A DNA stretch of 64,000 bases from a virus (lineage: Duplodnaviria > Caudoviricetes). The notes under the pieces were generated by a model. It was given only the letters and a program-made list of their open reading frames with translations, had not been told where the DNA came from and made no database searches. Positions 26,622-48,821 of the stretch are shown here, one piece after another. The translations under genes were made by a program, and so were the position numbers. Each line of letters starts with the position of its first letter. The stretch's first letter is position 1. The stretch covers positions 18,496 to 82,495 of the IMG/VR virus record IMGVR_UViG_3300020577_011595; one strand, written 5' to 3'.

Positions 26622-28037
26622 TCAGACGCCCAGCGAACCCGCCGCGCGACCGATGTTCTTCACCACGACGTTCTTGGTCGGGGTGTAGCACTTGACGGCG
26701 CCGTAGATGACCTGCGTCCAGCGGATCGACGTGTCGACCGCCGCGAGGGGGATGCGGGTCATCGGGAGGAGCTGCGACCACGAGAAGCTGCGGCTGTTCT
26801 GCATGAGCACGAAGCCCTTGCTGGTGCCGGGGATGTCCTCGTTGACGTCGGTGATGACCTGCGTGGCGCCCGAGCGGGCCACGCGCGTCATCAGCTTCGC
26901 CGTGCTCGCCGCACCGCCGAGCGTCGAGCGGAACACCTCGTAGAACGTGGTGTCGGGGCCCGCGTCGGAGACCGTGAAGGTCACGGCGTCGCCCGCCGCA
27001 ACGGCCACGCTGGCCGAGGTCACGGCCGCCGAGAGACCGCTCTTGTTGCCCGCCACCACCTTGTAGATGTAGGTGCCGGCGTCCGCCGTGCCGAACTGCG
27101 AGCTGGCGCTCGCACCGGCCGCCGGAGCGACCGTGATCGTCGGGGTGCCGGGGCGCTTGTCCGCGCGTCCGAGCGCAGCCGAGCGAGCCGCCTGGCCGGG
27201 CGTGATGAACACGTGGTCGTGCAGGTTGATCTTGCCGTGCTGGCCCTGGAACGCGGTGATCGTCGTGCCGAGGGTGCCGGGCGCGGGGGCGTACGCGAAC
27301 CGCTGGCGGTCGTACACCTGCTTCGCGAGGTCGGCGTAGGGGCCGGTCCCGAAGTAGGCGTCGGTGGCCTGCCCGTAGTTGTCGCGGATGGTGAGCAGCA
27401 TGTCGTTGAGGGCGTCCTCGGTGAGCACGCCGCCACGCAGGTCGATCACGTTGTCCGGCGCGCCGTCCTCGACGAGCTTGTAGAGGCCGTCCCACTGCTC
27501 GGGGATGAGCGTGGAGTCGCCGAAGAACAGGGCGTTCTCGAGGTTCCGCAGCAGCTCCATGGTCTTGTTCATCGTCTCGAGGGCGATGACGTTGCCGTGC
27601 GCCGCGCGGATCGTGTTCGCGACGTGCGTCACGCGACCCGTGATGCCCAGGAACTTGATCAGCACCGTGACGCGCTCGAAGGTGCTGTCCTGCTCGTCGG
27701 GCAGGCCGCCCTCGGAGAAGAACCCCTGGTTGAACGAGCGAGCGCCGCCCTCGCCGTAGGAGACGAGGCGGTTGAACTCCTCGACCGTGTTGCTCGCGGG
27801 CACCTTCGGGATGGACTTGAAGAGCTTGATCTCGTCCATCTCGTAGGTGAGGTTCTTGAGCGTCGCCTCCAGCGACTCGGTGCGGAGAGGGAAGCCCTCG
27901 CCCGCGGCCGTGCCGGGGTTGTTGACGTCGCTGCCTGCGCTGAGCGCCTTGTGCAGGTCGGCGATCTCCGTGGCCGAGGCTCCGATGCCTCCCGCGGCGC
28001 TCCCGTAGTCCTGCATCGAAACGAAGGGTCCGAGCAT
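26622..28037 (-). CDS. Major capsid protein (SPO1/Twort-like)
   Basis: Start ATG 28037 with AAAGGA. PLRTESLEATLKNLTY..EIKLFKSIPKVPASNTVEEFNR and LENALFFGDSTL match Herelleviridae-type MCPs, including the inserted TYIYKVVA Ig-like domain. Confidence 0.93.
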   Translation of the reverse strand: MLGPFVSMQDYGSAAGGIGASATEIADLHKALSAGSDVNNPGTAAGEGFPLRTESLEATLKNLTYEMDEIKLFKSIPKVPASNTVEEFNRLVSYGEGGARSFNQGFFSEGGLPDEQDSTFERVTVLIKFLGITGRVTHVANTIRAAHGNVIALETMNKTMELLRNLENALFFGDSTLIPEQWDGLYKLVEDGAPDNVIDLRGGVLTEDALNDMLLTIRDNYGQATDAYFGTGPYADLAKQVYDRQRFAYAPAPGTLGTTITAFQGQHGKINLHDHVFITPGQAARSAALGRADKRPGTPTITVAPAAGASASSQFGTADAGTYIYKVVAGNKSGLSAAVTSASVAVAAGDAVTFTVSDAGPDTTFYEVFRSTLGGAASTAKLMTRVARSGATQVITDVNEDIPGTSKGFVLMQNSRSFSWSQLLPMTRIPLAAVDTSIRWTQVIYGAVKCYTPTKNVVVKNIGRAAGSLGV

Positions 28038-28105
28038 GGTGCGTATCCTTTCTGGTGCCTGTTCCGTTCCGTGAGGATCGGGGTGAGTGCGTGGTGACGA
28101 CGTGA

Positions 28106-29101
28106 TCAGCGGTAGGAGAGGGCGGTCTGCGCCTCCCCCGGGTTGGTCGCGAGGAAGCGGTGGACGGCGTCGAGCGCCGAGGCCGGGAGGTGGCCGCCCG
28201 ACTCGTAGATCGAGGCGATGTCGGTCGCGCGCTGGCCCCCGATGGTGCCCCACCGCTCGCCCTTCTCGAGGCCCATGTAGCTGAGCGTGCTCACCACCTG
28301 GGACTTCGTGAGGGTCGGCGCCTGCCCGCGACCCGGACCGCCGGCCTCGCCGGGCATACCCTTGTGGAGCGGGCGCGCCGTGCCGGTCAGGCCGCGCTGC
28401 GGGCGGGGCGTGCTCTCCAGCATGCCCAGGCGCGCGCCCAGGGCCGCGATCACGGCCTGCTGGGACTTCACGAGCTGGCCGGTCGCGACCGCCGCGACCG
28501 TGATCTTGTGGAGCAGCGCGTCCGTCCGGTCGCTCCGCGCCTCCATCGACTTCGCGAGGCCGTCGAGCAGCTCGGCGTGCGCGGTCGCGAAGTCGGCCAT
28601 GAAGGGCGAGACGTCCATCGCGTCGGCGATCGACTGCTCGCCGCGCTCGTTCACGTAGTCGCGCAGGGCGTCGAGGGACTTGCCCATCTTGCCCTTGCCG
28701 CCCGTGGGGCGGACGCGCGGGTTGGGGGCCACGCCGCCCTCCGTCGAGGCCGGCTTGCCGAACTTGCCGGCCAGCTCGGGGACCTCTCCGTCGCCCTCGC
28801 CCTCGTCGCCGTCCGGCTCCTCCTCGTCCTCGCTCTGCTTGCCCCGCATGAACGCGGCGATGTCGCCCGCCCCGAAGCCGGCGTCGATGAGGCTCTGCGT
28901 CATCTTGCCGATCATCATCGAGTCGAGCCCGCCGACGTCGCCCTGCTCGGGGTAGCCGCCCGAGGTCGAGCCCCGCTCGTCGGTGTGCCCGCCGGTCTCG
29001 ACGGCCACGCCGCCGAGCGCCTTCGAGAGGTCCGCAGCGCGCACCAGCTCGTTGAGGGTCTCGTCGATCCCCTCGATCGTCGTCTCGTTGTCCTTCGCCA
29101 T
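28106..29101 (-). CDS. Scaffold-like protein between protease and capsid
   Basis: Start ATG 29101 (AAGGAG). Acidic patches and coiled coil, in the canonical position. Confidence 0.65.
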   Translation of the reverse strand: MAKDNETTIEGIDETLNELVRAADLSKALGGVAVETGGHTDERGSTSGGYPEQGDVGGLDSMMIGKMTQSLIDAGFGAGDIAAFMRGKQSEDEEEPDGDEGEGDGEVPELAGKFGKPASTEGGVAPNPRVRPTGGKGKMGKSLDALRDYVNERGEQSIADAMDVSPFMADFATAHAELLDGLAKSMEARSDRTDALLHKITVAAVATGQLVKSQQAVIAALGARLGMLESTPRPQRGLTGTARPLHKGMPGEAGGPGRGQAPTLTKSQVVSTLSYMGLEKGERWGTIGGQRATDIASIYESGGHLPASALDAVHRFLATNPGEAQTALSYR

Positions 29102-29112
29102 GGATCTCTCCT

Positions 29113-29862
29113 TCACTCCGGCGGCGCCGGATGGTGCTTGCATGCGTAGCTGGCGATGCGCTCGGCCATCGCCTTCGTGAGCTGGGGGTTGCGAGACATC
29201 AGGAAGAGCACCGCTTCGCTCTTCGTGAGCTTCTTGCGCTTCTTCTTGGGCTGCTCCGGCTCCGGGCGAGCCGGGGCAAGCCCCTCGAGCGCCTGCACCC
29301 GCATCGGCCCGGCGTCGCCGGGCGAGCCGCCCGCCGTGGAGCCGGACCCGACCGAGAGGCTCTTTGCCAGGGTCGAGAGGTTCGTGCGGTCGTTCACCGG
29401 GCAGCGGGTGATCGCGACCTCCCGAACGATGGCCTTGCGAACGCGCCGGGGGTCCGCGGGGTCGCGATCGATGATGGAGCCCTCGACCGAGAAGCCGAGG
29501 CGACGGGGCGCGCCCGACCGCTCCAGAGCGGTCGCCAGGTTCCAGATTTCGTCCGCGGGAGGGTGGCCCTTGAGCAGGTAGCCCTCGACGTACCAGCCGC
29601 GGCGACCGTCGGGGAGCGTGCGCAGCTCCGCGCGCTCGGGGTAGCCGACCGCCTTGCCCGTCTCCTTGAGGTGGTTGTCGTTGAAGAACCCGCTCTTGAG
29701 GAAGGGTGAGAAGTCGAGCCCTTCCTGCACGAGCACCTCGTGCTGCTTGTCGAGGTGGTCGGTCGACACGATGCCCGCGATGCGCCGCTCGCGACCGGGC
29801 TCCGCCGAGGCCTTCTCGAAGGTCTCGAACTCGAACTCGAAGTTGAACGGGGTGCCGTGCAT
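29113..29862 (-). CDS. Prohead maturation protease (HK97-like serine protease)
   Basis: IAGIVSTDHLDKQHEVLVQEGLDF...FNDNH (His), GWYVEGYL, and LGFSVEG (catalytic Ser). Confidence 0.9.
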   Translation of the reverse strand: MHGTPFNFEFEFETFEKASAEPGRERRIAGIVSTDHLDKQHEVLVQEGLDFSPFLKSGFFNDNHLKETGKAVGYPERAELRTLPDGRRGWYVEGYLLKGHPPADEIWNLATALERSGAPRRLGFSVEGSIIDRDPADPRRVRKAIVREVAITRCPVNDRTNLSTLAKSLSVGSGSTAGGSPGDAGPMRVQALEGLAPARPEPEQPKKKRKKLTKSEAVLFLMSRNPQLTKAMAERIASYACKHHPAPPE

Positions 29863-29873
29863 GGTGGGTCCCG

Positions 29874-29911
29874 AAACGAAGAAAGGCGGCGCCCCTTTCG
29901 GGGAACCGCCT
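29874..29911 (-). terminator. Terminator/attenuator hairpin just upstream of the protease start
   Basis: AGGCGG-TT-CCCC-GAAA-GGGG-CG-CCGCCT followed by TTCTTCGTTT, ending 11 nt before the ATG. Confidence 0.7.
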
Positions 29912-29971
29912 CTCTGCCGCGCACGCGCGGCTAGGCCACGAGGGGGATATGACCCGAGCTGGCTCCGTTCG

Positions 29972-30184
29972 TCAAGCGCGAGGCACAACGGGTCGGGGCG
30001 CCTCCGCCTTCCGGGGCTCCTGGGAAGGCACGAGCGTGCCGATGATCACGCCCCGCTTGCAGGTCGGACAGTTGACCTCGGCCTCCCCCGACTTGTGGAG
30101 CACGAGCATGCTCGTCGAGGCCTTGCGCTTGCCGCCCGCGCCGTCGCGAAACAAGGGCTGGCCGCAGTGAGGGCACGCGCTCAT
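29972..30184 (-). CDS. Small zinc-finger protein, Mu Com-like
   Basis: Start ATG 30184. CPHCGQPLFR...AEVNCPTCK follows the Com-family CxxC-LL/LF...E.kCP.C pattern. Confidence 0.6.
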   Translation of the reverse strand: MSACPHCGQPLFRDGAGGKRKASTSMLVLHKSGEAEVNCPTCKRGVIIGTLVPSQEPRKAEAPRPVVPRA

Positions 30185-32100
30185 CGGAGGCTCTTCTTCG
30201 CGGGCTCGCTCGTGCGGCCCGCGCGGAGCCACGCCTTGAACCGCTGGATGGGCCACGAGCGCACCGTTCCGAGCAGACGGGGTCCCTTCGCGTCGTAGTT
30301 GCGGAGGTAGGCCGCGCGCGCCTCGGCGATCGTGCGGAACCCGAGCATGACCTTGTGCTCGTCGAACCCGCCGCCCTCGAGCTTCTTCTGGTTCACGATG
30401 AACACGCGCTCCGAGTCGCGATGCGGCCCGACGAAGACGTCGATGTCCTCGCCGTCGGCGCCCTTGGTGCCCTCGATGAACCCGTAGGGGTGCACCATCG
30501 TGGTCTCACCGTGCTCGCGCTTCTGCGGGTCGTACCAGCGGCGGACCGATCCCTTCGGGTTCTCGATCGCGACGTCGAGGCCCTGCACCACGAGGCGGTC
30601 CTTCACGGGGAGGTTCTTGATCAGCGACGCCACGCCGATCGGTCTGAAGATCAGGGACTTCTTCGTCTCCCACGGGGGCAGCTCGAACCCGAGCTTCTCC
30701 TCCGCGTTCGTCTCCCACTCCGCCAGATCGCCTCGGATGGTCGGAGACTTCGACGTGCGAAGCGCCGTCTCACGCATCTTCACGAGCTTCGCCTTCGCCT
30801 CCTCGATCTTCCCTTCCTTGGCGAGCCGCTGCGCGACGGAGAACCCGCCATCCCAGAAGAGCTGGTCGCTGCTCCGCTTCTTCTCCTCGCCGGGCATCTT
30901 GACGCCGTGCTGCTGGTAGAGCGCGCGCAGCCGCATGATGTCCTCACGGCGCTCGTCGAAGATCCCCTCGCTCTTCGCGGGGGCCGCCTTGCCGATGTCG
31001 TAGAGCACCACCTTGCCGGCCTTGTCGAGGCCCACCTGCACGTCGTCGTTGAGCGCGTAGCCCTTCTCGTGCATCGCGAGCAGCGCCGTGCGCGCGTCAT
31101 CGAGCTGCGCCTGCGTGAGCTTGCTCGGGATCTCGACGTAGGGCTTGATCTGGAAGCCCTTGTCGCCGTGGTGGACGTACTCGCTCCGCAGCATGCCGGG
31201 CACGCCCGCGCTCGCGAGCTTGTTGCCGACCTCGACCTGCTTGCGCAGCATCTCGTTCGCGTCGCGCGGAGATCGGTGCCCCGGGTTGAACGGCTGGTAG
31301 GGGACGGTCGTCGAGACCTTCACGACCTTGTCGCCCACGCGGAACGCGATCCCGTCGTCGCCCTTGCCGAGCAGCTTCGCCTTGCCGGAGATCACGGCGT
31401 CGATGTCCGGCCGACCCGACGCTGGAAGGTCGACGCGGCCCTCGAGATCGTTCTGGAGGTGTCGGAACGACGCCGCGGGCATCTTGGTCCCGTAGCCGCG
31501 CTCCAGCCCTGCCGCGGATGACGCGATGCGCACCGAGCCGTCTGCGTCCTGCGCAGCGTGCACCTCGAGCGGGTGGGCCTTCTCGCTGCCTGCGATGGCG
31601 GGGTGGACCTCGATCACGTGCTTCCCCTCGATCTTCTGCGGCGGGGGAGGCGGCGCCTGGCGCGCGTCGAAGAGGCTCGCCTGCTGCGGCGCCCGGGGCG
31701 CCTGCTTGGGGGTGTGCGAGAGCAGGTCGAGCTGCTGCGGCTTCTTCGCGGGCTCGGGCCCCTTGGGCGCTTCGGGCGCCCGCCCGAAGCCCAGGGCGCT
31801 GGCGGTGTGGGGGTCGAGCTTGGAGGGGTCGAGCTTGACCTTGCCGGCCCGGTTGCAGGTCCGGCAAGGGGCGCTGCTCACGACCTCTCCGCCCCCCATG
31901 ATCATCTGCCGGCTGATCACGTGCCGGAGCCCATGGCACACCGAGCACGAGCCGCCCTGAGCCCCCGCCCCCTGCCTCTTGGCCGACGGGTCCTCGTACG
32001 GGATCGTGTGGGCGGCGTCCGCCCACTTCCCGCCGCGCGGACCGTAGAACAGCCCCTTCCGCAGTCGCCCCGCGGTGTGCACGCGCACCGGGCGCCTCAC
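30181..32100 (-). CDS. Polyvalent protein: GPRGG tag + Zn finger + protein-kinase-like domain + inorganic-pyrophosphatase-like (InPase) domain
   Basis: GTG start overlapping TGA 32097. Kinase motifs LLGKGDDGIAF, KVVKV and VVLYDIG. InPase motifs IENPKGS..YGFIEGTKGADGEDIDVFVG..DEHKVMLGF. Confidence 0.8.
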   Translation of the reverse strand: MRRPVRVHTAGRLRKGLFYGPRGGKWADAAHTIPYEDPSAKRQGAGAQGGSCSVCHGLRHVISRQMIMGGGEVVSSAPCRTCNRAGKVKLDPSKLDPHTASALGFGRAPEAPKGPEPAKKPQQLDLLSHTPKQAPRAPQQASLFDARQAPPPPPQKIEGKHVIEVHPAIAGSEKAHPLEVHAAQDADGSVRIASSAAGLERGYGTKMPAASFRHLQNDLEGRVDLPASGRPDIDAVISGKAKLLGKGDDGIAFRVGDKVVKVSTTVPYQPFNPGHRSPRDANEMLRKQVEVGNKLASAGVPGMLRSEYVHHGDKGFQIKPYVEIPSKLTQAQLDDARTALLAMHEKGYALNDDVQVGLDKAGKVVLYDIGKAAPAKSEGIFDERREDIMRLRALYQQHGVKMPGEEKKRSSDQLFWDGGFSVAQRLAKEGKIEEAKAKLVKMRETALRTSKSPTIRGDLAEWETNAEEKLGFELPPWETKKSLIFRPIGVASLIKNLPVKDRLVVQGLDVAIENPKGSVRRWYDPQKREHGETTMVHPYGFIEGTKGADGEDIDVFVGPHRDSERVFIVNQKKLEGGGFDEHKVMLGFRTIAEARAAYLRNYDAKGPRLLGTVRSWPIQRFKAWLRAGRTSEPAKKSLR

Positions 32101-32297
32101 GTGCGGGTCCTGTCGTGGAGCTGCGTCAGCGCCCGGTTGAGGCTCTCCTGCGTCGGCGCCGTCGTTGGCTTCTGCGCCTTCGGAGCGGCCGCGGGGCAGG
32201 GCTCGACCGCGGCTTGCGACGACGCGGCGCAAGCGCACTGCCGGCATGCCTCGGCGCGATAGTCCCATCGGTGCGTCCCGTGCGCGATCCTCATCAT
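32097..32297 (-). CDS. Small Cys-rich hypothetical protein (66 aa)
   Basis: ATGA overlap upstream and GTGA overlap downstream. Sequence HRWDYRAEACRQCAC. Confidence 0.5.
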   Translation of the reverse strand: MMRIAHGTHRWDYRAEACRQCACAASSQAAVEPCPAAAPKAQKPTTAPTQESLNRALTQLHDRTRT

Positions 32298-34042
32298 GGC
32301 GTCCTCGCACCCTCGTAGGCCCGGTGAACGAACGCGAACTGCCGAGGGAACCCAAGCATGAGCCTGTCCCGCTCGAAGAGGTACATCCGCGTCACCTCGG
32401 CTGCGTTCTCGATCGGGAGCTTCTTCGCGTACGGCGAGACCCAGCCCTCGCGCTGCGACACGGCCCACAGGCGGTCGTGCCACTTCCGCACCGGCTCCGG
32501 GCCGCCGAGCACCCGCATGAGGTAGACGTTCAGCGCGTGCCCCAGCTCGTGCCGGATGACGCGGGGCCACCGCTCGATCGGGAGCGCGGGGTTCACGCGG
32601 ATCTCGTTCGCCGTCCAATAGGCGTAGTCGTGCTCCTCGAGCGGGTTCTGCGCGCGCGGGTGGTCCGTCGTGATCAACGTGACCCCCGTGTCCTTGCGGA
32701 AGAGCCACGGCGGCGCCTCGGCGACGATGCTCTCGACGACCTGCCGCTGCATCGGGTCTCCGATGCGCACGACGACGCCCTGCTCGGGCACGACGGCCCG
32801 ATGCGTGAGGTGTGGGCCTTCGGCCTTGCGGAGCGCCTCGTGGGCGAGCGCGAGGCGGTCGCTCTTCCGCAGCATGACCTCGGGCATCATCTCGCCCGTC
32901 TCGGGATCGAAGGTCCAGCCCTCGGGGACCTCGACCAGCTCGCAGGCGCACCACGGGTGCACGGGGCCGACGGTGGGCTTCCACGCCGTGCGCTTCACGC
33001 CGACGTTCGTCCCGTTCGCCGTCAGCTCGGAGAGCCGGAACACCTTGGGAGGCGACCCCGGGCCCGCGGTGAGGTGGAGCCGGATGCAGTCGGGGCACGC
33101 GGTCGGCGACGGGAGCTTCGCCACGCGGATGTCCTTCGGGTTGCGGCCCTTCGCCATCCCGCGCGCGAGGCCTTCCTGCATCGCGAACTGCTGCTCGGTC
33201 GCCGCGAGCCGCTGCATGTCCCGGGACCAGTCCTCGGTCGCGTGCCCGATGTCGCTCGCCAGCTCACGCCACGCGCCCTGCCGATCGATCGAGTCTTCCA
33301 GCTCACGCTGGATGGTGCCCATGTACCTCCGCCGCTGCTCGGCGTCCGCGTCGAGCACGAGCGCGCCGATCTCCAGCGCGAGTCGATCGCCCATGCCGCG
33401 CACGTACTGCCCCGCGTGGTAGCGGGCGGCGCCCATCGCCTGCTTGTCGACCTCGGTGAGGCTCTCGCGCGTGCGGTCGAGGTGGGCGACGAAGTCGTCG
33501 ATGGTCTGGTCCTCGTGCGTGCGGCGGCCCTTGGGATCCGCCGTCGCGCGGCCGTACTGGTAGGCGTAGTCGAGCAAGCGCAGGGCCGGGGGCCCTGCCT
33601 TCCCCGCTTCTCCCGACGCGAAGATCGTCGAGAGGTCCGACGGCGTGATCCCCAGGCTCAAGAGCCGCTGTAGGTCCTCTCCGGGGATCGCGTCGGGGCC
33701 CAGCACACCGACCGCGAACGCCGCGTGATGATCGCGCACGATGGCCTTGAGCGCCTCGAGCTGCGCGGGCGTGAGCAGCGCGAGCTTCCGCTGTGCGGCA
33801 CTCGCGCGGGCGGAGTCGGGCGCCGAAGCGAAGCCCACCATGTCCGGCCACGAGACCTCGTCGACGAAGCCGTTGGACTTGCGGAGCTTGCCCCCGAGCA
33901 CCTCCTTCGCGATGTAGCGAAGCAGCTCCGCGAAGATCCGATCCACGAGCGCGTCGTAGGCCTTCCCCACGCGCTCGTGGAGCTGGCGCATCGCCCGGGA
34001 TCGGATCTTCTCCGGCTGGTGCTCGTGGTCGGGCGCGCGCAT
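32294..34042 (-). CDS. MuF/SPP1 gp7-like head morphogenesis protein with C-terminal zincin metallopeptidase
   Basis: MuF-type ACPDC...GPVHPWCACEL. C-terminal RHELGH...WVSPYA...ENAAE (HExxH plus distal Glu). Confidence 0.82.
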   Translation of the reverse strand: MRAPDHEHQPEKIRSRAMRQLHERVGKAYDALVDRIFAELLRYIAKEVLGGKLRKSNGFVDEVSWPDMVGFASAPDSARASAAQRKLALLTPAQLEALKAIVRDHHAAFAVGVLGPDAIPGEDLQRLLSLGITPSDLSTIFASGEAGKAGPPALRLLDYAYQYGRATADPKGRRTHEDQTIDDFVAHLDRTRESLTEVDKQAMGAARYHAGQYVRGMGDRLALEIGALVLDADAEQRRRYMGTIQRELEDSIDRQGAWRELASDIGHATEDWSRDMQRLAATEQQFAMQEGLARGMAKGRNPKDIRVAKLPSPTACPDCIRLHLTAGPGSPPKVFRLSELTANGTNVGVKRTAWKPTVGPVHPWCACELVEVPEGWTFDPETGEMMPEVMLRKSDRLALAHEALRKAEGPHLTHRAVVPEQGVVVRIGDPMQRQVVESIVAEAPPWLFRKDTGVTLITTDHPRAQNPLEEHDYAYWTANEIRVNPALPIERWPRVIRHELGHALNVYLMRVLGGPEPVRKWHDRLWAVSQREGWVSPYAKKLPIENAAEVTRMYLFERDRLMLGFPRQFAFVHRAYEGARTP

Positions 34043-34054
34043 GGCTCCGCCAGG

Positions 34055-34849
34055 CTAGCAGCCCGTCGGAGGATCGGTCACGAGGTCGCCGAGCACCGCG
34101 TAGGTGACGACGACGTCGTTCTCGTCGTCGAGGTTCTCCAGCGTGAGCGCCGAGCAGCTCAGGGACGCGAGCAGGAACGCGCGCACGTCCTCGGCGCCGT
34201 CCGAGCCGCTCGTGTCCGCGGGGACGAGCAGCGTGATCGGGGTCTGCCCCGCACCCGCGTCGGTGCCGTTCGTCGTGCCCGTCGAGAGGCCCAGCGCGGT
34301 GAGCACGCCCGCGTCGGTGTCCGTGTCGATCACGATGCTGGCCGCCAGCCCGGACGTCGGGCTCAGAAGCCGAAGCTGCGAGCCGCCGTTCGTTCGCGCG
34401 ATCGTCGTGGGCACACCGCCCGCGCCCGCGATGCCTGCGAGCGCGGCTGCCGCGTTGATCCGGTTGATCACGGCCGCGAGCGACTGGTCCGCGGAGGTGA
34501 ACGCCACGGTGACCGCGGTCCCCGTGATCTCCAGCACCAGCTCCTCGCCGCCCACGAACCCGGTGGGGTACGAGCCGCCGACTCCCGTGACGATCGCCTG
34601 CGTCGCGCTCGTGCCGCCGGGCGTGAGCCGGATCGGGCCGGTGGCCTCGAAGTAGACGATGCGCGCCGCGGACACGTCGCCGAAGGGCACCGCGAAGTTG
34701 GTCTCCGAGGCCTCGAGCGTGATCGTCCCGCCCTCGGCGTGCTCCAGGGTGTCGAGGAGCTGCTGGAGCGCGCCCTCGAACACGGGCTTGCTCAGGTTGT
34801 TCTCGCGCCCGACCTCCAGGGTCAGGTCCACGTTCACGCGTACGCCCAT
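34055..34849 (-). CDS. Putative virion structural protein
   Basis: Start ATG 34849. Thr/Gly/Ala beta-rich, with LAAVINRINAAA and LTALGLSTG repeats of the kind seen in sheath insertion domains. Confidence 0.55.
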   Translation of the reverse strand: MGVRVNVDLTLEVGRENNLSKPVFEGALQQLLDTLEHAEGGTITLEASETNFAVPFGDVSAARIVYFEATGPIRLTPGGTSATQAIVTGVGGSYPTGFVGGEELVLEITGTAVTVAFTSADQSLAAVINRINAAAALAGIAGAGGVPTTIARTNGGSQLRLLSPTSGLAASIVIDTDTDAGVLTALGLSTGTTNGTDAGAGQTPITLLVPADTSGSDGAEDVRAFLLASLSCSALTLENLDDENDVVVTYAVLGDLVTDPPTGC

Positions 34850-41300: not shown

Positions 41301-43329
41301 CGACCTTCTCGGGCTGCTCGGGCTCGCCGAGCTGCTGCCGTAGCACGGCGGACCCACGGCGCCCCTTCTGCCTGCCCGCCCACCGCTCGGCGGCGTCGGA
41401 CGCGGCCCGCTCGGTCGCGTCCCTGCGTTGCTTCGCCTGCGAGAGGCTCTGGTCGTACGCCTCGCGGTCCGCCTGCCCGCGCGACGCCCGCGAGACGCGC
41501 TCCTCGGCCTCCCCAGCGCCCTGCCTGACCTCGGCGAGGGCCCGGTCGGTGTCGGACCGCGCAGCCTCGTCGAGCCGCCCCAGCGCCGCGTGCGCGGCTT
41601 CGACGTGCTGCTGCGCCTGGGGGTCGTGCCCGAACATGCGGTTGACGTCCTCGGGACTGCCCATCCCGAAGACGTCGAGCACACCGTCGTCGTCGCCGCC
41701 CTGGGGAGGCATCTGGTAGCCCCCGCCCCCGAGCGCGGCGGGGCCCACAGGGCCCTGGGGCGCGGGCTCCGCCTCTCGGGGCGCTGTCGGCTGCGCCGGG
41801 GCGCCAGGAGCCTCCGGGGCGCCGGGAGAGGGCGTCTGCCCCAGGGTGCGCGCGCTCGCCGTGACCGAGGCGAGCCCCTGCTTGCCGGAAGCGAGAGCGT
41901 CGGACGCGTAGGCCTCGAGCTGCTTGTTCTTCTTTTCGGCGGCCTCGAGCAGCGACCCGAGATCGGGCCCGAGGACCGACGCGGGGGCCGCGCTGCTGTT
42001 GAACGCGCGCCCGAACGCCTTGAGGTTCTCGACGATCTTCGAGTCGCCCTCGGCGGTCTTCGCGCCGGCCTGCCGCGCGCGGAGCCCGACGACGATGTGG
42101 TTCAGCGCCTCTTCGAGCTGGCCCGCGAGCTGGGGGTCGTGCTGGCGGATCGCCGCGACGACCTGCATGCCCTGCTGCCCGATCTCGTTCGCGCCGGGCA
42201 GGGGCTTGGGCTGCGCGCCGGCCGGCTGGGCCGGCGCCGGGGGCTTCTGCCCGGGCGGCTTGGGGGCCGCGCCCTGCGGCTGTCCCGACCCCTCGTGGTA
42301 GGGGATCGTGTGCTCGGGGTTGGCCCACCGACCGCCCTGCGGGCCCGTGAACAACTGCGCCTTGGCCAGGCCCTCGCGCACCGCCGCTTCCCGCTGGGCA
42401 GATAGTTTCTTCACGCGCTTCTCCAGGTGGTCGACCTCCGAGCGTAGGTCGTGCGCCGCTCGCTCGTCGACGCCGTTCTCGGCGAGCCGCTTCTGCCGCC
42501 ACGCGAACAGCGCGTCCTTGCGCGCCTCTTCGCGGCGGTACCTCTCGGGGGTCATCTCGCTCGCGGGTTGCTGCCAGGCGTGCACGTCGCCCATCGCCAC
42601 GCGCCGCATCCCGCGATCGAGCGCGCTCCGCTCCCAGCTCTCGGTGAGCGACGCGGAGTCGACGTCTACGAGGTCGGGCACCGTGAGGCGGTCGACGACG
42701 GCCTTGCCCTTCGTGTTCTTGGCCTCGAGCACCTCGAGCGCCGCGCGCTTCTGGCCCAGCTCGTGTGCCGCCTTGCCGAGAGCCTTCGCGGCGCGCTCCA
42801 GGGTGCCGAGCCTGGCAGCCTGCTCCGGGTCCTGCTTCTTCGCGCAGCCCGTGCCCATGATCACGTGACGCCCGTTCGTCAGCTCGACGGCGGCGTGCAC
42901 CTCGTGCTCTCTCGCGCACCGCGCGCACACGGCAAGCACGCCGCTACCCGGGATCGGGCGGCTGTACTCGACCCCGAGGTGCCCCTCGACCAGCTCGCGC
43001 TCGCGCGTGTCGCGGATGCCGACGATCCGCTTGATCTTCACGTGCTTCTCGGACTCGGAGAGCAGCGCCGGCCGCCCGTGCTCGGCCGGGTTCCAGTGGA
43101 TCGTGTGCTGCGGGTCCGCCCACAGCCCACCTTTCGGACCGATGAACGGGCCGCCGCTCATCTTCGCCATCATCGGCACCACGAGCCGGCGCTCGAGGTC
43201 GGCGTAGTAGTCGGGCCGTTCCTGAAGGTGGTTCGCGACCTTGCCGGCCTTCTCGCGCGCATCGCCGTGGCCCTTCTCGCGCTCGTAGGCGATGGCCGCT
43301 GCGATCTCGGTCGGCGTGGGTCGGTGCAT
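38320..43329 (-). CDS. Large polyvalent protein (1669 aa): DUF5661-like N-terminus, repeated tags, C-terminal DdrB/ParB-like domain
   Basis: Start reset to ATG 43329. EREKGH...ANHLQERPDYYADL is DUF5661-like. ARYKLANASDLVASHD...QERAY...NPDAVNGPPVV...LGGNSRTM is DdrB-ParB-like. Confidence 0.8.
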   Translation of the reverse strand: MHRPTPTEIAAAIAYEREKGHGDAREKAGKVANHLQERPDYYADLERRLVVPMMAKMSGGPFIGPKGGLWADPQHTIHWNPAEHGRPALLSESEKHVKIKRIVGIRDTRERELVEGHLGVEYSRPIPGSGVLAVCARCAREHEVHAAVELTNGRHVIMGTGCAKKQDPEQAARLGTLERAAKALGKAAHELGQKRAALEVLEAKNTKGKAVVDRLTVPDLVDVDSASLTESWERSALDRGMRRVAMGDVHAWQQPASEMTPERYRREEARKDALFAWRQKRLAENGVDERAAHDLRSEVDHLEKRVKKLSAQREAAVREGLAKAQLFTGPQGGRWANPEHTIPYHEGSGQPQGAAPKPPGQKPPAPAQPAGAQPKPLPGANEIGQQGMQVVAAIRQHDPQLAGQLEEALNHIVVGLRARQAGAKTAEGDSKIVENLKAFGRAFNSSAAPASVLGPDLGSLLEAAEKKNKQLEAYASDALASGKQGLASVTASARTLGQTPSPGAPEAPGAPAQPTAPREAEPAPQGPVGPAALGGGGYQMPPQGGDDDGVLDVFGMGSPEDVNRMFGHDPQAQQHVEAAHAALGRLDEAARSDTDRALAEVRQGAGEAEERVSRASRGQADREAYDQSLSQAKQRRDATERAASDAAERWAGRQKGRRGSAVLRQQLGEPEQPEKVEISPERAAARTQARPRKPKAEAPMERSITPTMIKAMIGGQPQPQPSIGPAYGAAPGQRASIPDYQDIYFQPRDADHRQREEEAEVNRRQADADASTRAHGFHGTGNVRLDPTLLYVPAVRTMAMVGGPQIAQRAPLVVADHQRPRLAAGGPGMPQGNPPRAQADAGRVPRSPDAREDALAPAPPMGPRPSPGVADPAGTPGARRASPLPVVPVQLPPGAEPEPEEDDEAEDEETEKSQAALAALYHALHKAGAGAASHKYVRRVPTGNPKRPWRYYYAESAIARDAQAGEEVSLGHGQGIAKVHEVEKDGTVHVEMGGRVRAIKPDEWANLLVRGYGTRYHDWAEKRAEASVNAVLRHVPKALLGELEGSDEERFAQLQKRVPEVYAKLQQAFGRAGVNPFRAKSILATALERRGWEPEARAAAIGSVLTQRTSATRFSEIVRGAENLAAGARVTVGHVGTVVELRGGADAETDDFADRVAEIAKRAEAELAKLSEALAKAQSGSTNDRARALAEALASSAIQKLNLLTSAFPGLKDKVADEARNAMAAAPAAAPHPAPKTDGGSTAVYVAGDGGQPKAIRARYKLANASDLVASHDPLKGFKKREDYPEGVQERAYHRDEAEKGKVLRNAMSLNPAFVANTNPDAVNGPPVVIEQDGKLIALGGNSRTMSMQHAYVHHGEKGAALKAYLAEHAHEFGLRPEDVDALEHPVLVRVIEPEDTSTASQKLLVRQLNESFTQAMDPRTMQVAMGRKLDEQSLAALGNDMKEDETLSAFLASNRSERFVNALQRAGIIDQRNANQYLKKGTKLLNEDGRVLVERILVGRLVGDADILSNTGPKIVGNIAAAVPYMVQAKTSGGKGYDVGGDLAVALSAYNDLHHRVETGAIPALDPKMEPKTFDRLFNYFDDLFGGRHPVVDNQNARALLELLVRKPGPQQQAAVWRDYVRRAGQNPEGQGSMFGPAKSPGEVLRETVAAALSRSDEKTPANQRALF

Positions 43330-43334
43330 GCGGG

Positions 43335-46300
43335 TCAGGCTCGGGGGATCGTCAGGCGGTTGCCGACGAGGTGCTGGTAGCGCGGGTCGACGAGGGGCCG
43401 GGAGAGCAGGTTGCGGAGGGCCTTGTGGAGCAGCTCGCTCTTGCCGAACGCCGCGAAGATGGCGTCGAAGTGCGGCGTCATCGCGTCGACCTCCGCGTCG
43501 CTCGGCCAGAGCTTGCTGACTGCGCTGCCCGCCATCGCGATGCCTGTGAGGTAGGTGTTCTCGCGGCCCTTCGCGTGCAGCTTGCGCTGCACGTACCTCT
43601 CGAACGTGCGGGCGAACACCTCGCACGTCGAACGCCAGTAGTCGGCCTTGCCCGCCGACATCCGCTTGTCGCGTACGTACTGGCGAGTCTCGGCGGCGAG
43701 CCTCTCACGGAACGCGCCCATCGCGTCCGACGTCATCAGCGCGCGCATGGCGCGGAACGTCGGATCGTCGTCGGCCTTCGTGTCCCGCACCAGGACGTCC
43801 TCCGAGACGAAGCGCGCTTCCTTCCGGCCTGCGTAGGTGCGCTGCGTGGCCTCGCCCGCCGCCTCGTAGATGAGGTTGTCGAACATGTGCCCCCACTCGT
43901 GCGCGAGCGCGCCCGCTCCCGAGTCGCGGGTCAGGTTGATCACACGCGCGGTGGGTTCGTAGTGCGCGGAGGCCGTGCCCTTGCCTCGCGCGCCGATCGC
44001 CATCGCGAGGCGCCCGTTGAACGAGGCCATGCCCGCCGGCAGCCCGAGCACGTCGGTGAGGTCCGCGAACGAGTCGACGACGCTCTTGAGGTGGTGCTCG
44101 CGTTCGCCGTCGGTGACGCTCTTGCCCCACTGCACGCCGCGCATCCCGTACTTCCCGCCCTTGCTCTTGTCGAGCAGGTCGAGGCCCTGCTTGACGCTGC
44201 GATACTCGGACGGCGGGCCCTTCCGCACCATCTTCGACGTGTTGTAGACCTTGGACAGATCCCACTCGTCCTCGGCCTTCGACTGCTTCGCGCCGAAGGC
44301 CTCGTTCATCGACTTGCCCTCGAGCATGCGCATCACGTGGTTGGCCATCGCCGCGTTGCGCTCTTCCGCCGTGGGGTACTTCGCGTTCAGGCGGCGCGCG
44401 AAGTCGTTGGCCTGCGCGAGCGGGGAGAGCGACCCGCGGCCGGCGATGGCGTTGTGGAAGTCGCGGATCGCTTCGGTAGCTGCCGAGGTGGGTCCGTACT
44501 CCTCACTCACCCGCTGATGGAGCACCGCCACGTCGCTCAAGAACGCGCGCACGGCACCCAGCGGGTTGTCCGCGTGGTCTTTGCTCTCGACGAATTTCGA
44601 GAGGAGGCCGCGCGCCTCGCTCCACGCGGCGTAGTAGGCCTCGCGCTGCTTCCGCAGATGCTCCTCGGCCGTGACGGCCTCGCCAGAGGGAGCACTGCGC
44701 GCGAGCAGCTTGACCCCGTCGTACTTCGTGGGCGCCGACCACGCGCCCTCCTCGCCCGTGCGATGGCGCGGGATCGTGGGGCGCTGCGGGAACTTCCGCA
44801 GCATGAGGTGGCCGAGCAGGACCTTGAGCGTCTGCGGGCCGTTGCCCTCCGCCGTGATCTTCTGCGCCACCGAGACGAACTCGACGGGCTCCTGGCGCTC
44901 CAGGAAGTCGCGAGTGAAGAGACGGTCCGCGTCGGCCGACGCAGAGGCATCGCGCGCGTTCTTCCACACGAGCGCCTTGTGCCGGGCGCTGCCGCCCACG
45001 TCCTCGCCGCGCTGCTCGACCGCGGACGAGCGATCGTTGACGAACTCCTCCGCCTCCTTCGCCTTCTTCGCAGTGGCCTCTGCGTCACCCCGGGGAGTGC
45101 CCTCGGGGGCTCTCGGGGCCACCGGGATCACGAGGCGCTCGGGCGGCTTGGCCGGGGCCTCGGCGGGCGGCGCCCACGGTGTCTCACGCTTCCCCGCGCC
45201 TTCGATCGATCGCACGGGCTCGATCGTGCGCTTCGCTCCCGTCGTCCACAGCTCGGCCGTGCCGTCTGCGCGGATGATCAGCTCGCGAAGGTTGCGCGAG
45301 CGGCCTTCGATGGGGGCGAGATACACGCGCCGCCCGTACTTGCCGCCCGAGACCTCCGTGTCGTCGATCTCGGCGCGGAACTTCATCCCGTTGACCGTGA
45401 CCGTCTGGCCCTTCGTGAAGCGCATCATGGGCGTCTGGGCCTTGACCCGATCACGGTCGGCCTTCGCCTTCTCAGCCTCCACGCGGAGTCGCTCGCGGAT
45501 GTCGTCCGTCCGCGCGCGTGTCGCGAGCTGCTGGTCCTCGGGGACCTTGTCCTTGTCGGTCCAGCCCCCGGGCGGCGGCTTGCCGAACTCGATCTCGGTC
45601 ACCCTCGGCTTCGCGGGCTCGGGCTTCGGAGCAGGGTCCGCCGGCTTCACGCCTCGAGCGCGGTCCATCGACTCGGCGAGATCCGCCTTCGTGCTGCCGG
45701 GGTTGAGCTTGTGCCACGCGCGGCGGAGGGACTCTTCGTCAGCCACCGGACCGTCGCCGGCTCCGTGCGCGAGCAGGTGAAGCACGCGCTCCGCCAGCTC
45801 GTTCGCGCGCTTCATGTCCTTCCGCGCCATCGCGTCGGTAGCCTGGGCGAGCAGCTCCTCACCCGAGACGGTGGGCGACGTCGTCGGCTTCTTGGGCTCG
45901 GCGGAGAGCAGCACGCCGCCGCCGTCGTTCACGGTCCGCACGATGCTGGAGAACGCGCTGAACGGCTGGGAGTCGGGCATGCGCTCCCAGCCGTCGGGGC
46001 TCTGCGCGCTGGGCTTCTGCTTCTCCCAGCCCATCTTGCCGTCCTTGGCCTTGCGCCAAGCGGCCGTGCCGTCCTTCGCCACGACCAGGCTGCCCACGGG
46101 GAGTGCGTTCACCTTCTCCATCGAGAGGGTGCCCGCGGGCGTGACCTTCGGCTTCGACGGGTTGATCGCCTCGTCGAGCCGGCGCTGGTCGAGCCGGGGC
46201 TTGACGCGCACGGGCTCATCGCTGTCCACGAGCTTCTCGTGCGCGCGCTTCGGCGTGACGACCTTCGGCTCGACCGGGATCGCGGGCGTCGGCCCCTTCT

Positions 46301-48821
46301 CGGGCGCGGGCGTGCGGAGACCCATCGCGTCGAGCGCGGGGCGCAGCTCTGCCGGGATCGACGAGCCGCCCATCAGCGGCTTCCCGTCGCGGCTGATGTA
46401 CGTGATCAGGTTGCCCACGGCCTTCGCGCGTCCCTCGCGGATCATCCGCACCGTCTGGAGGTCGCTGTGCAGGCTCTCCATGATGGAGTCGTACCGATCC
46501 CAGGGCTCGCGCTCCTCCGGCGTCATCTTGCGGCCCGAGTTGCGCTCGATGTGCGAACGCAGCCTCGCGATGTTGTCGCGTCCGTCGAGCACTGCCCGGG
46601 AGTCGCGGACGTTGTCGATCGCCGCGCTCGCGGCCTCGAGAGCAGAGAGCGCCTCGTGCTTGATCTCGGTGCTGTAGTCCCCGTGCTGGACGAGCAGCTT
46701 CGCGTCCGCGATGCGCGCCTTGTGCTGGTCGATGAACGTCTGCGCGAACTCGATCTGCTTCGGCGTGCCCGACCACGGCTTGCCCGTGGGAGCGGGCTCG
46801 GGCGCCGCGGGCGCGGCCGCTTCCTTCGCTGCCTCGGCGGTCTTCTTGTCGTGCTCCTCGAACTCGCTGAAGACGTCCCGCTCCTTCGCGAGCGAGCCCT
46901 GATGCCACTGCCTGTGCTTCAGGCGCGCGTCGGCGACCGCCTTCGCGTGCTTCGGCCAGAGCATCCCGGGGTCGAAGACCTGCCGCCCGTGCTCGGTCGT
47001 GGCGACCGAGCCGTCCTGGCCGACCGCGAGGTACTGGTTGCCGGGGAGGTAGACGCGGACGCCCTTGCCCTCCTTCGTCCAGACCTTCGCGCGCTCGACG
47101 CCGTGCTCACGAATGAGCGCAGCGAGCTTCTCGGCGTGCTCCAGCGCGCGGGCCTTCGTGCCCGCGGGACTCTTGAAACCGCCCTGCGGCTCACCCTGCG
47201 GGGCCGGCGTGTCGACGCCCGTGCTCGCCGCCACGTGGGACACGCCCGTGACCTCGAGCCCGTGCTCGGCGGGCTCGGGGCGCGCGCTGGTTGCTGCGGG
47301 GATTGCAGGCTTCGCGGCTTCGTGCTGCGCGGCGGCCGCCCGCAGCGGGGCCATCACGTTCTCCTCGAGCCACTGCCGCGCCTTGCCCGGCCCGATGCCC
47401 TCGAGCAGCGGGGGCATGCGCGCGAGCATGCCCTGGACGAGGTGCCCGTCGGCGCGCGCGAGCGCGTCGTCGGCTGCCCTCTTCGCCATCTCCGCCCACA
47501 CGGGGATGATCGCGGGCTCGACGTGGTGGTGCTCGTGTACCGGCTCCGACGGGCGAGAGGGCGGTGCAGGGGCCGCCTTCGGAGGCGCAGGTGCCGCCGG
47601 CTCGCCGAAGTCGAACCCGAGCTGGCCTCGCCGCTTCTCGGCGGCCTCCGCACCGCCCACGTGCTTCTCGCGGAGCCACGACTGGTATTCGTGCTCGTGA
47701 TAGAAGTAGCGCCAGGGGTTCTTGGGGTTTCCCGTCGGGATCCGCTTGAAATACTTGCCGCCGCGGGCGACGCCCTTCTCCAGGTTCTTCGCCTTCTCGT
47801 CCTCCCGCGCCCACCCCCAACGCTTGCCCGCGGGGCCCTCGTGGTCGTGGTGCAGATGGGCGTCCGCGTCCTTCACGTCCGCCCCGAAGGTGTGGGAGAA
47901 ACCGCGCGCAGCGTGGGTGACACCGCGGGCTCCTGCGTTCGTCGCGTCATGCCCTCCGCCGGTCGTGCCGAGGTGATGCAGCATCGCCTCGGCCTGGACG
48001 CGAGAGAACGTCGAGTGCGCCGACATCCCGCTGGGCTTGTGCGTGACGTGGTACTGCATCCCGCCGTAGCCCTTCTCGCGGTGCAGCGCGTAGTCCCCGA
48101 GCTGGATGCCCTCCCGCGTCTCCTTACCGTCGCGCGTCGCGATCTCGAAGGAGCCCTTCTTCGTCGGGACCTTGATCCGTTCCGCGCCCTCCCCGTGAGA
48201 CTCGGCGTAGCTGTAGATCCACCCCCCGCGCCCGTCAGGACGCCGGCTCAGGTACTTCCCGCCTCGTGCTTCTGCCTTCTCGAGGGGCACCACGAGGGTC
48301 ATGGACTTCGTCACGTTGCGTGCTCCCTGGAACCGGACCGTCGGGGTCTTCCCGTAGTCCGTCTGGTTGTTGCGCTTCCAGTATGCCGTGGCGCGTCGGG
48401 TGACCTCGTCGCGCGTGTCGGCCGGGACGTGGCGCATCGCGTCCCTCATGGTGCCCACGAGCCTCCCGCGGGCATGGATCAGGCGGGGCGTCTGGGTCTT
48501 CTGCGAGAAGCTGACGGGGCTGTCCTGCACGAGGCGCTGCACGCGCTGCTCGTCGGCAGGCTCGAGGCCCAGCCCGCGCGTCACGTCGTCGATGTCAACG
48601 ACGTGCGGCGTCGGCCGGGCGCGGGGGTCCTCGCCCTCGGCGTCCGTGCGCATCATCCGAGTCACCTCGGCCTGCATCGCGCCCGCTTCGCCGAGCCCGG
48701 ACGCCGCCAGCGCCCGGAGCTTGTGGCTCCCGTAGTGCGGGAAGCTTGCCGCGCCCGGGAGGTGTGCCTGGGACCGGGACGGCTCCTGGGCCTTCTCCAG
48801 AGGGTCGCGCTCGCGCTTCAT
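43335..48821 (-). CDS. Large polyvalent protein (1828 aa) with C-terminal zincin metallopeptidase and LPD1-like domain
   Basis: YGMRGVQWG...ER, LAMAIGARGKG..AHYEP, SGAGALAHEWGH, and YWRSTCEVFARTFERYV match LPD1/MPTase polyvalent modules. Confidence 0.85.
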   Translation of the reverse strand: MKRERDPLEKAQEPSRSQAHLPGAASFPHYGSHKLRALAASGLGEAGAMQAEVTRMMRTDAEGEDPRARPTPHVVDIDDVTRGLGLEPADEQRVQRLVQDSPVSFSQKTQTPRLIHARGRLVGTMRDAMRHVPADTRDEVTRRATAYWKRNNQTDYGKTPTVRFQGARNVTKSMTLVVPLEKAEARGGKYLSRRPDGRGGWIYSYAESHGEGAERIKVPTKKGSFEIATRDGKETREGIQLGDYALHREKGYGGMQYHVTHKPSGMSAHSTFSRVQAEAMLHHLGTTGGGHDATNAGARGVTHAARGFSHTFGADVKDADAHLHHDHEGPAGKRWGWAREDEKAKNLEKGVARGGKYFKRIPTGNPKNPWRYFYHEHEYQSWLREKHVGGAEAAEKRRGQLGFDFGEPAAPAPPKAAPAPPSRPSEPVHEHHHVEPAIIPVWAEMAKRAADDALARADGHLVQGMLARMPPLLEGIGPGKARQWLEENVMAPLRAAAAQHEAAKPAIPAATSARPEPAEHGLEVTGVSHVAASTGVDTPAPQGEPQGGFKSPAGTKARALEHAEKLAALIREHGVERAKVWTKEGKGVRVYLPGNQYLAVGQDGSVATTEHGRQVFDPGMLWPKHAKAVADARLKHRQWHQGSLAKERDVFSEFEEHDKKTAEAAKEAAAPAAPEPAPTGKPWSGTPKQIEFAQTFIDQHKARIADAKLLVQHGDYSTEIKHEALSALEAASAAIDNVRDSRAVLDGRDNIARLRSHIERNSGRKMTPEEREPWDRYDSIMESLHSDLQTVRMIREGRAKAVGNLITYISRDGKPLMGGSSIPAELRPALDAMGLRTPAPEKGPTPAIPVEPKVVTPKRAHEKLVDSDEPVRVKPRLDQRRLDEAINPSKPKVTPAGTLSMEKVNALPVGSLVVAKDGTAAWRKAKDGKMGWEKQKPSAQSPDGWERMPDSQPFSAFSSIVRTVNDGGGVLLSAEPKKPTTSPTVSGEELLAQATDAMARKDMKRANELAERVLHLLAHGAGDGPVADEESLRRAWHKLNPGSTKADLAESMDRARGVKPADPAPKPEPAKPRVTEIEFGKPPPGGWTDKDKVPEDQQLATRARTDDIRERLRVEAEKAKADRDRVKAQTPMMRFTKGQTVTVNGMKFRAEIDDTEVSGGKYGRRVYLAPIEGRSRNLRELIIRADGTAELWTTGAKRTIEPVRSIEGAGKRETPWAPPAEAPAKPPERLVIPVAPRAPEGTPRGDAEATAKKAKEAEEFVNDRSSAVEQRGEDVGGSARHKALVWKNARDASASADADRLFTRDFLERQEPVEFVSVAQKITAEGNGPQTLKVLLGHLMLRKFPQRPTIPRHRTGEEGAWSAPTKYDGVKLLARSAPSGEAVTAEEHLRKQREAYYAAWSEARGLLSKFVESKDHADNPLGAVRAFLSDVAVLHQRVSEEYGPTSAATEAIRDFHNAIAGRGSLSPLAQANDFARRLNAKYPTAEERNAAMANHVMRMLEGKSMNEAFGAKQSKAEDEWDLSKVYNTSKMVRKGPPSEYRSVKQGLDLLDKSKGGKYGMRGVQWGKSVTDGEREHHLKSVVDSFADLTDVLGLPAGMASFNGRLAMAIGARGKGTASAHYEPTARVINLTRDSGAGALAHEWGHMFDNLIYEAAGEATQRTYAGRKEARFVSEDVLVRDTKADDDPTFRAMRALMTSDAMGAFRERLAAETRQYVRDKRMSAGKADYWRSTCEVFARTFERYVQRKLHAKGRENTYLTGIAMAGSAVSKLWPSDAEVDAMTPHFDAIFAAFGKSELLHKALRNLLSRPLVDPRYQHLVGNRLTIPRA

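Follow-up and report, generated by a model that had tools for sequence, protein, structure and literature searches.

In phages T4, phiKZ, and SPN3US, a single short motif marks where the prohead protease cuts: in the major capsid protein (MCP), in the scaffold, in the protease itself, and in ejection proteins (PMC5694885, PMC10052503). These proteases cut after Glu, at (L/I/A/S/G)-x-E, and show C-terminal self-cleavage (PMC5694885; PMC10052503). Here, we analyzed a 64-kb stretch of DNA from an uncultured phage (Caudoviricetes), hereafter called the window. It corresponds to positions 18,496 to 82,495 of the IMG/VR record IMGVR_UViG_3300020577_011595 and is part of a viral contig of 82.5 kb (GC 70%). 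The head-module proteins of this phage are rich in another short motif, L-x-K-[A/S/G]. The motif is likely to be the recognition and cleavage signal of the phage's own prohead protease, with the cut (↓) after Lys.

In T4, the (L/I)-x-E↓ code of gp21 acts on gp23, gp24, the scaffold gp22, gp67/68, internal proteins, and Alt. The phiKZ gp175 and SPN3US gp245 proteases (MEROPS S80) use (S/A/G)-x-E↓ or A-x-E↓; their cuts after Glu have been proven by mass spectrometry, and nearly all of them remove N-terminal propeptides. In the window, as in the T4/phiKZ type, one short motif is common to the MCP propeptide, multiple scaffold sites, the protease, and internal proteins. With T4, the phage shares the predicted protease fold and the register of the motif (hydrophobic P3, free P2, charged P1). 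It also shares a predicted pattern of one N-terminal MCP cut, a scaffold cut many times, a protease that processes itself, and cleavage of proteins that are packaged or ejected. With phiKZ and SPN3US, it shares the presence of one motif in many head and ejection proteins, multi-site propeptides, and C-terminal autocleavage of the protease, again as predicted.

There are also differences. P1 is Lys in the window but Glu in T4, and P1' is limited to Ala, Ser, or Gly. The putative cargo consists of polyvalent proteins of 1,700-1,800 residues with multiple sites, whereas in T4 the internal proteins are small and carry a single N-terminal targeting peptide that is removed. Conserved peptides (tags) follow the predicted cut in the window instead of preceding it. 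In contrast to phiKZ and SPN3US, the predicted cuts are after Lys and include internal junctions. As judged from the sequences, the code works like the T4/phiKZ type but belongs to a different specificity class (P1 Lys). The known T4/phiKZ type of motif would here have Lys at P1 and extend to junctions of polyvalent proteins.

Polyvalent proteins were cataloged by Iyer et al. 2017 (PMC5512222), who assigned their processing mainly to embedded zincin metallopeptidases and mentioned assemblin-like peptidases only where these are C-terminally fused. The zincin-like metallopeptidase (MPTase) is found in ~36% of polyvalent proteins and is thus not obligatory; HExxH with Asp three residues downstream is the signature of the phage-type MPTase (PMC5512222). 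The large multi-domain proteins of the window carry LPD1, ddrB-ParB, and InPase domains from that catalog and lie in a head-gene neighborhood. They differ from the cataloged proteins in pointing to a prohead protease encoded apart from them and to an explicit motif at the junctions.

Enrichment of the Motif in the Head Module

Gene calls on the minus strand were based on GC3. The 12 head-module proteins (26622-48821; 7,381 aa) contain 33 L-x-K-[A/S/G] sites, in agreement with an earlier reading of the sequence by eye (the original prediction), which had counted at least 30 in about 7,300 aa. All examples named there were found: LHK30↓A in MCP, LVK13↓A and LEKS in the portal, LAKS and LTKS in the protease, LSKA, LAKS, LHKG, and LTKS in the scaffold, LRKS twice and LRKA in a 582-aa protein, and LEKA, LEKG, LAKA, and LHKA in two giant proteins. 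Whole-protein shuffles gave 7.0 ± 2.5 expected sites (z = 10.6). Shuffles within 30-residue blocks, which keep the local composition of, for example, Lys/Ala/Leu-rich helices, gave 7.5 ± 2.8 (z = 9.2). The enrichment therefore survives correction for composition, although head-module proteins are indeed richer in Lys than the rest of the proteome, as had been cautioned (5.1% vs. 2.4%; likewise about twofold in relatives G001, G004, and G005).

Sixteen control patterns (reversed, permuted, or substituted) showed absolute z values of 2.5 or less in the head module. Patterns altered at single positions are flat: L.K[^ASG] (18 vs. 19 expected), [^L].K[ASG] (97 vs. 96), [IVM].K[ASG] (13 vs. 12), and L.R[ASG] (18 vs. 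11). Thus, the signal requires all three positions jointly. L.E[ASG] is not enriched (15 vs. 10.5 expected, z = 1.4). In an unbiased scan of 8,000 a-x-b-c patterns, L.KS ranked first (12 vs. 1.39 expected; P = 3e-8, surviving Bonferroni correction) and L.KA ranked third, which rules out a cherry-picked pattern.

Outside the head module, the motif is found at expectation. Tail and baseplate proteins (8,819 aa by these gene calls) contain four sites (LTKG, LLKG, LTKS, and LPKS; 3.6 expected), where only one had been counted by eye, and the early genes contain three (2.4 expected). The tail matches are not conserved among relatives. The description of the motif as nearly absent from tail proteins is correct in that sites are few, but there is no depletion. 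Sites are few because the Lys content is low (about 1-2% in tail proteins), and avoidance of the motif is ruled out both by these counts and by observed/expected ratios of 0.75-1.2 outside the head modules of relatives. Many sites had been said to lie near termini; 13 of the 33 are within 65 aa of a protein terminus (6.5 expected, P = 0.007).

Replication and Retention of Sites

We compared 42 related metagenomic loci (MCP identity 52-85%), and three relatives were taken as whole genomes. The head modules of these three contain 32, 32, and 24 sites against 7.5, 8.5, and 8.1 expected (3.0-4.3-fold); the enrichment is confined to them, as the remainder of each genome gave the ratios above. Site retention has a median of 0.86, whereas control tetrapeptides in the same alignments are retained at 0.64 or less, mostly near 0. 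These alignments strongly support selection on the motif sites. Across sites, P2 varies freely and P3, P1, and P1' do not, a pattern expected for protease subsites.

The code extends to the Bacillus phages SPO1 and SP-10. In SPO1-like phages, MCP, portal, and protease are homologous to those of the window (30-45% identity) and have the same gene order. The SPO1 head module includes gp3.1 (portal), gp3.2 (protease), gp3.3 (scaffold), and gp6.1 (MCP). These four proteins contain 11 sites in SPO1 (1.8 expected; five of them in gp3.3) and 13 in SP-10 (1.9 expected), and the portals of both phages also have N-terminal L-x-K-[AS] sites. Their tail proteins show the motif at expectation. Listeria P100 (L090) and Staphylococcus 812h1 (L091) have K↓S at the homologous position of MCP with Ala or Val at P3; their proteases have 2-4 L-x-K-[SG] sites, and their scaffolds have no L-x-K-[ASG] site. 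The P3 preference has, by these comparisons, diverged within Herelleviridae. Lys at P1 looks family-wide, while strict Leu at P3 and a many-site scaffold appear common only to the SPO1 branch.

The lineage of the window differs from Herelleviridae in its GC content (60-70%), its genome size (~100-113 kb), its uncultured status, and ~19 kb of polyvalent cargo genes inserted between terminase and protease. It is not assigned to Herelleviridae, as the comparison covers head-module proteins alone and GC is 70% against ~30-40%.

Major Capsid Protein and Scaffold

The features of these two genes are as follows.

26622..28037, minus strand: MCP, 471 aa (phrog_752, E = 1e-90)
27945-27956, minus strand: MCP candidate maturation cut, LHK30↓A31
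27813-27824, minus strand: MCP second motif match, LFKS72
28106..29143, minus strand: scaffold-position protein, 345 aa, with six motif sites
29018-29029, 28547-28558, 28463-28474, 28358-28369, 28301-28312, and 28259-28270, minus strand: scaffold sites

The MCP is 32-35% identical to SPO1-like MCPs and matches PDB 9vel, SPO1 gp6.1 (E = 4e-55). L-x-K-A at K30 is kept in 40 of 41 relatives, with R, H, Q, K, M, or A at P2. In the alignment of MCP N-termini, ..IADLHK↓ALSAG of the window is aligned with ..DALNK↓ALEAG of SPO1, ..TNLNK↓ALEAG of SP-10, ..EDALK↓SFTTG of Listeria P100, and ..EDVVK↓SFQTG of Staphylococcus 812. The second match, LFKS72, is unlikely to be another cut, since relatives vary there as LF[KR][ST] (LFRS, LFKT); judging from this variation, it is probably a structural motif.

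The scaffold-position protein is the hot-spot of the motif, with six sites against 0.42 expected. At five of these sites, the motif is retained by 31-37 of 37 relatives despite a mean identity of 41%. The same protein is the hot-spot in all six genomes examined from the lineage, including that of the window (6-9 sites, and 7-9 in the relatives, vs. ~0.5 expected). It matches no Pfam or PHROG family; its role as a scaffold is suggested by the position of the gene between protease and MCP, as for SPO1 gp3.3. An alternative start at 29116 gives 336 aa and a 4-nt overlap with the protease stop.

Prohead Protease

The protease gene adjoins the scaffold and MCP genes, and the order portal ... protease, scaffold, MCP is that of SPO1 and SP-10.

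29113..29862, minus strand: prohead (head-maturation) serine protease, 249 aa (phrog_1028, E = 2e-48)
29359-29370, minus strand: candidate self-cleavage site LAK167↓S, kept in 38 of 38 relatives
29218-29229, minus strand: candidate self-cleavage site LTK214↓S (212-215)
29170-29181, minus strand: candidate self-cleavage site LTK230↓A (LTKA228), kept in 2 of 38 relatives
29566-29577, minus strand: LLKG96, inside the catalytic domain, kept in 18 of 38 relatives

Among cultured phages, the protease has homologs (30-45% identity) almost exclusively in Herelleviridae-type myoviruses of Firmicutes. H64 and S125, assigned by analogy as the catalytic dyad of the predicted protease, are invariant in 16 sequences (51-81% identity), and so are L165, K167, and S168 of the LAK↓S site. 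In the AF2 model, which was based on the 16-sequence alignment, residues 1-158 form the catalytic domain (pLDDT 80-93). They are followed by a disordered linker (159-205), with the invariant LAK↓S at its beginning, and by a small C-terminal unit of two helices from residue 214 on, at LTK↓S (212-215). The fold search with this model returned only three matches at E ≤ 1e-3, all of them chains of T4 gp21 (5jbl; probability 0.99-1.0). Herpesvirus proteases (assemblins) match weakly, behind gp21. The modeled protease thus has the T4 gp21/assemblin-like beta-barrel fold. Self-processing is predicted at the invariant LAK↓S, at the start of the disordered linker.

Portal and Smaller Head-Module Proteins

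The portal and three further proteins carry sites.

34852..36591, minus strand: portal protein, 579 aa (phrog_12, E = 2e-50; Pfam Phage_portal)
36550-36561, minus strand: candidate N-terminal trim of the portal, LVK13↓A, kept in 8 of 9 relatives
34903-34914, minus strand: candidate C-terminal trim of the portal, LEK562↓S, kept in 9 of 9 relatives
29972..30232, minus strand: zinc-ribbon-like protein, 86 aa (weak zinc-ribbon Pfam matches only)
30089-30100, minus strand: zinc-ribbon protein site LHK47↓S, kept in 20 of 20 relatives with variation at P2 and P1'
32294..34042, minus strand: 582-aa head-module protein, with sites at 33875-33886, 32861-32872, and 32822-32833
36606..38270, minus strand: 554-aa head-module protein of no assigned family, with sites at 37290-37301 and 36813-36824

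The 582-aa protein has three sites against 0.46 expected, kept in 8 of 12 (site 53), 8 of 14 (site 404), and 1 of 15 (site 391) relatives. It contains HELGH at residues 498-502 (32537-32551), which matches no Pfam model. This protein had been labeled MuF in the original prediction, but the label is not supported by any match to Pfam or PHROGs, even at E ≤ 5. The 554-aa protein has two sites against 0.29 expected. Its LAKG324 is kept in three of four homologous modules and is MQKG in the fourth, and a homology module starts at residues 315-324.

Giant Polyvalent Proteins, InPase Protein, and Tags

Three large proteins upstream of the protease contain domains of the polyvalent protein catalog. 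Two ~30-residue conserved peptides, the tags, follow directly after sites in them: RGGKY..R.P.G..RYYY and GP[RK]GGKWAD..HTIP[YW].

43335..48821, minus strand: giant polyvalent protein 1, 1828 aa (C-terminal Pfam LPD1, E = 8e-16)
48789-48800, 48273-48284, 47772-47783, 44163-44174, and 43419-43430, minus strand: giant 1 sites
38320..43329, minus strand: giant polyvalent protein 2, 1669 aa (Pfam ddrB-ParB, E = 5e-13, residues 1255-1392)
42769-42780, 42358-42369, 40549-40560, 39799-39810, and 38884-38895, minus strand: giant 2 sites
30181..32247, minus strand: InPase cargo protein, 688 aa (C-terminal Pfam InPase, E = 6e-38)
32053-32064, 31360-31371, and 31018-31029, minus strand: InPase protein sites
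47700-47783, 48190-48284, and 44080-44174: tags of giant 1
42270-42369 and 40450-40560: tags of giant 2
31960-32064: tag of the InPase protein

Giant 1 contains five sites (2.15 expected). RGGKY tags directly follow K182, K349, and K1552, and PHROG modules begin at residues 1549-1558, beside K1552↓S. It also contains HEWGHMFD at residues 1641-1648 (43884-43907), that is, HExxH with Asp three residues on, which matches no Pfam metallopeptidase model even at E ≤ 1. Giant 2 likewise has five sites (1.76 expected) and contains no HExxH. There are tags behind K323 and K926; two of two homologs retain K926, and the same holds for K1176. The phrog_5143 match (ParB module, 1164-1482) is bracketed by K1176 and K1481. 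The start of giant 2 is ambiguous between ATG 43329 (1669 aa) and GTG 43626 (1768 aa), the latter overlapping the end of giant 1. The InPase protein has three sites (1.0 expected), the one at 32053-32064 being followed by the tag GPRGGKWAD..HTIPY. Its start (30181-32391) is also ambiguous, with lengths of 639, 688, or 724 aa and the first site at K15 or K64. Most of the remaining length of the giants matches no family.

Together, the two giants have 10 sites against 3.9 expected (P = 0.007). Head-block proteins of at least 640 aa from six genomes have 75 sites against 31, a count of homologous and hence non-independent proteins. A direct peptide-pattern search gave only one locus for each giant, and homologs were taken from the complete genomes of relatives. 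The relatives shuffle the modules and domains of the giants extensively. In aligned homologous modules, sites of the giants are kept in 50% of pairs, compared with 5-27% for controls, and several replacements are M-x-K-[SG]. Of 76 starts of homology blocks, 24 lie no more than 10 residues from a site (5.9 ± 2.3 expected); block ends show no coincidence (3 of 94). Most sites at module junctions carry one of the two tags immediately downstream. Both tags are found again in giants from five other genomes, with L-x-K-[ASG] ahead of ~13 of the 17 copies. They may serve in capsid retention, in ejection, or as a protease exosite.

Such an arrangement is compatible with a modular loading grammar, in which each cargo module would consist of L-x-K↓[A/S/G], one of the two tags, and an enzyme domain. 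This is a tentative idea, rather doubtful at present. If it were true, each cleaved fragment would carry at its new N-terminus a tag for retention in the capsid or for guided ejection, and relatives could exchange enzymes freely through recombination at the junctions. Phages would then have a natural plug-and-play means of loading arbitrary proteins into a capsid, and a broad array of SPO1-type head modules, from high-GC and low-GC hosts alike, would share it. Virion proteomics with trypsin would have missed it, because the cuts are after Lys.

Proposed Processing and Alternative Explanations

L-x-K↓[A/S/G] is best explained as the recognition and cleavage signal of the phage's own prohead protease (predicted dyad His64/Ser125, gp21/assemblin fold). 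After assembly of the procapsid, the protease would remove the 30-residue propeptide from MCP. It would cut up the scaffold at five or six positions, leaving peptides of ~14-160 residues that could exit the shell, and trim the portal at both ends. The protease would also cut itself in the linker behind the catalytic domain. Finally, head-cargo proteins, including the giants, would be cut at junctions just upstream of the ~30-residue tags and cargo domains. For the sites of the capsid, scaffold, portal, and protease, this reading is very likely. For the code overall, it is likely. For true polyprotein processing of the giants, the chances are about even.

The original prediction went further and had the protease cut every site. 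The retention of sites, the aligned MCP site, and the gp21 fold strongly support a processing code, but several points weigh against so broad a reading. Chance would account for about 7 of the 33 sites, and MCP 72, protease 96 and 228, site 391 of the 582-aa protein, and several sites of the giants, including site 321 of giant 2, are poorly kept. In the giants, the enrichment is modest (~2.5-fold), and about half of the sites belong to recurrent tags and are thus not fully independent. The predicted fold of giant 2 residues 900-1500 (mean pLDDT 54.6) is too poor for placing sites in linkers. The 2,211-2,253-aa head-module giants of two relatives (G003, head region 21487-28122 (L087/L088); G004, 67420-74181) are not enriched (2 vs. 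2.5 expected). Since each has a site at K19, they seem to lose no more than an N-terminal propeptide. Packaging of the giants is suggested only by the position of their genes and by domain families. The claim that the giants are polyproteins matured inside the capsid is thus plausible from the count, the 50% retention, and the module starts, but its signal is weaker and it has a rival in the zincin-like HExxH of giant 1. In phage A511, cleavage of the capsid protein between Lys and Ser is reported (Loessner and Scherer 1995), at the position homologous to K30↓A of the window MCP.

The HExxH sequences raise the question of whether two proteases act. In that case, substrates of the prohead protease would be limited to the shell proteins (MCP, scaffold, portal, and the protease), and any processing of the giants would fall to an embedded metallopeptidase (zincin-like), in line with the proposal of Iyer et al. 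2017 (PMC5512222) for polyvalent proteins. HEWGHMFD of giant 1 matches their phage-type MPTase signature, HELGH is found in the 582-aa protein, and the enrichment in the giants alone, 10 against 3.9, is modest. However, neither giant 1 nor its HExxH matches a Pfam metallopeptidase model even at E ≤ 1, giant 2 has no HExxH, and the giants use the three-position motif of the shell proteins, retained well above controls and coinciding with module starts. Two proteases are therefore unlikely, as is the associated proposal that the motif matches of the giants are partly chance and partly tag residues. The tags directly downstream, and the coincidence of sites with module starts but not with module ends, could instead mean that the motif is a conserved binding or structural element, such as a peptide docking to the scaffold or the capsid interior or the first residues of a tag, enriched through a shared interaction. 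Most sites of the scaffold, portal, protease, and MCP have no tag behind them, though, and a free P2 with fixed P3, P1, and P1' is what protease subsites would give. The MCP site is the position of K↓S or K↓A in related Herelleviridae capsid proteins, where A511 is reportedly cut, and the multi-site scaffold and protease linker mirror processing in T4 and SPN3US (PMC5694885). A binding element is thus quite improbable.

The cuts might also be made by a Lys-specific endopeptidase of the host. As a precedent of a different sort, a host protease reportedly cleaves the capsid and scaffold proteins of Staphylococcus phage 80alpha. Against this, the phage encodes a conserved prohead protease with an intact dyad directly upstream of the scaffold and MCP genes, and the same code is found in low-GC Bacillus phages and in a lineage of 70% GC, whose hosts must differ greatly. 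A host enzyme is therefore very improbable. An artefact of composition or counting, for which the twofold Lys content of head proteins would speak, is practically without probability: it is rejected by the whole-protein and 30-residue block shuffles (z 9-10) and the 16 control patterns, the motif is at the top of the unbiased scan, and the enrichment is replicated in relatives.

If the Lys-type code of the prohead protease is real, the mature ends of every head protein could be predicted from sequence in this lineage and in SPO1-like Bacillus phages. Among proteases of the gp21 fold, P1 specificity would have changed from Glu to Lys, with a hydrophobic P3 maintained in the same register. The code would also provide a testable mechanism for the release of giant polyvalent proteins as single enzymes, which Iyer et al. 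left to the embedded metallopeptidase. No L-x-K or Lys-type consensus was found for the proteases of SPO1, A511, and phage K type in the literature searched, whose coverage left out the A511, LP65, SPO1-genome, and phi812 papers. Trypsin-based proteomics of virions is blind to the code because cuts after Lys resemble tryptic cuts, and this may be the reason why it is not described for Herelleviridae in that literature.

Gene Order and Composition

Every gene in the window is on the minus strand. Along this strand, the order is early genes, large terminase, giant 1, giant 2, 554-aa protein, portal, 264-aa protein, 582-aa protein, InPase protein (688 aa), zinc-ribbon protein (86 aa), protease, scaffold, and MCP. 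Two of these genes have not been listed above.

49450-51105, minus strand: large terminase
34055-34849, minus strand: 264-aa protein, between the portal and the 582-aa protein

The 264-aa protein matches no family. It is conserved in 10 relatives (44-55% identity), contains 0.4% Lys, and has zero L-x-K-[ASG] sites. The five complete relatives are 100-113 kb in length, and three of them have direct terminal repeats. Downstream of MCP are neck, sheath, tube, and baseplate genes. Several tail and baseplate proteins contain less than 1% Lys; for example, the 615-aa protein at 15091-16938 contains 0.2%.

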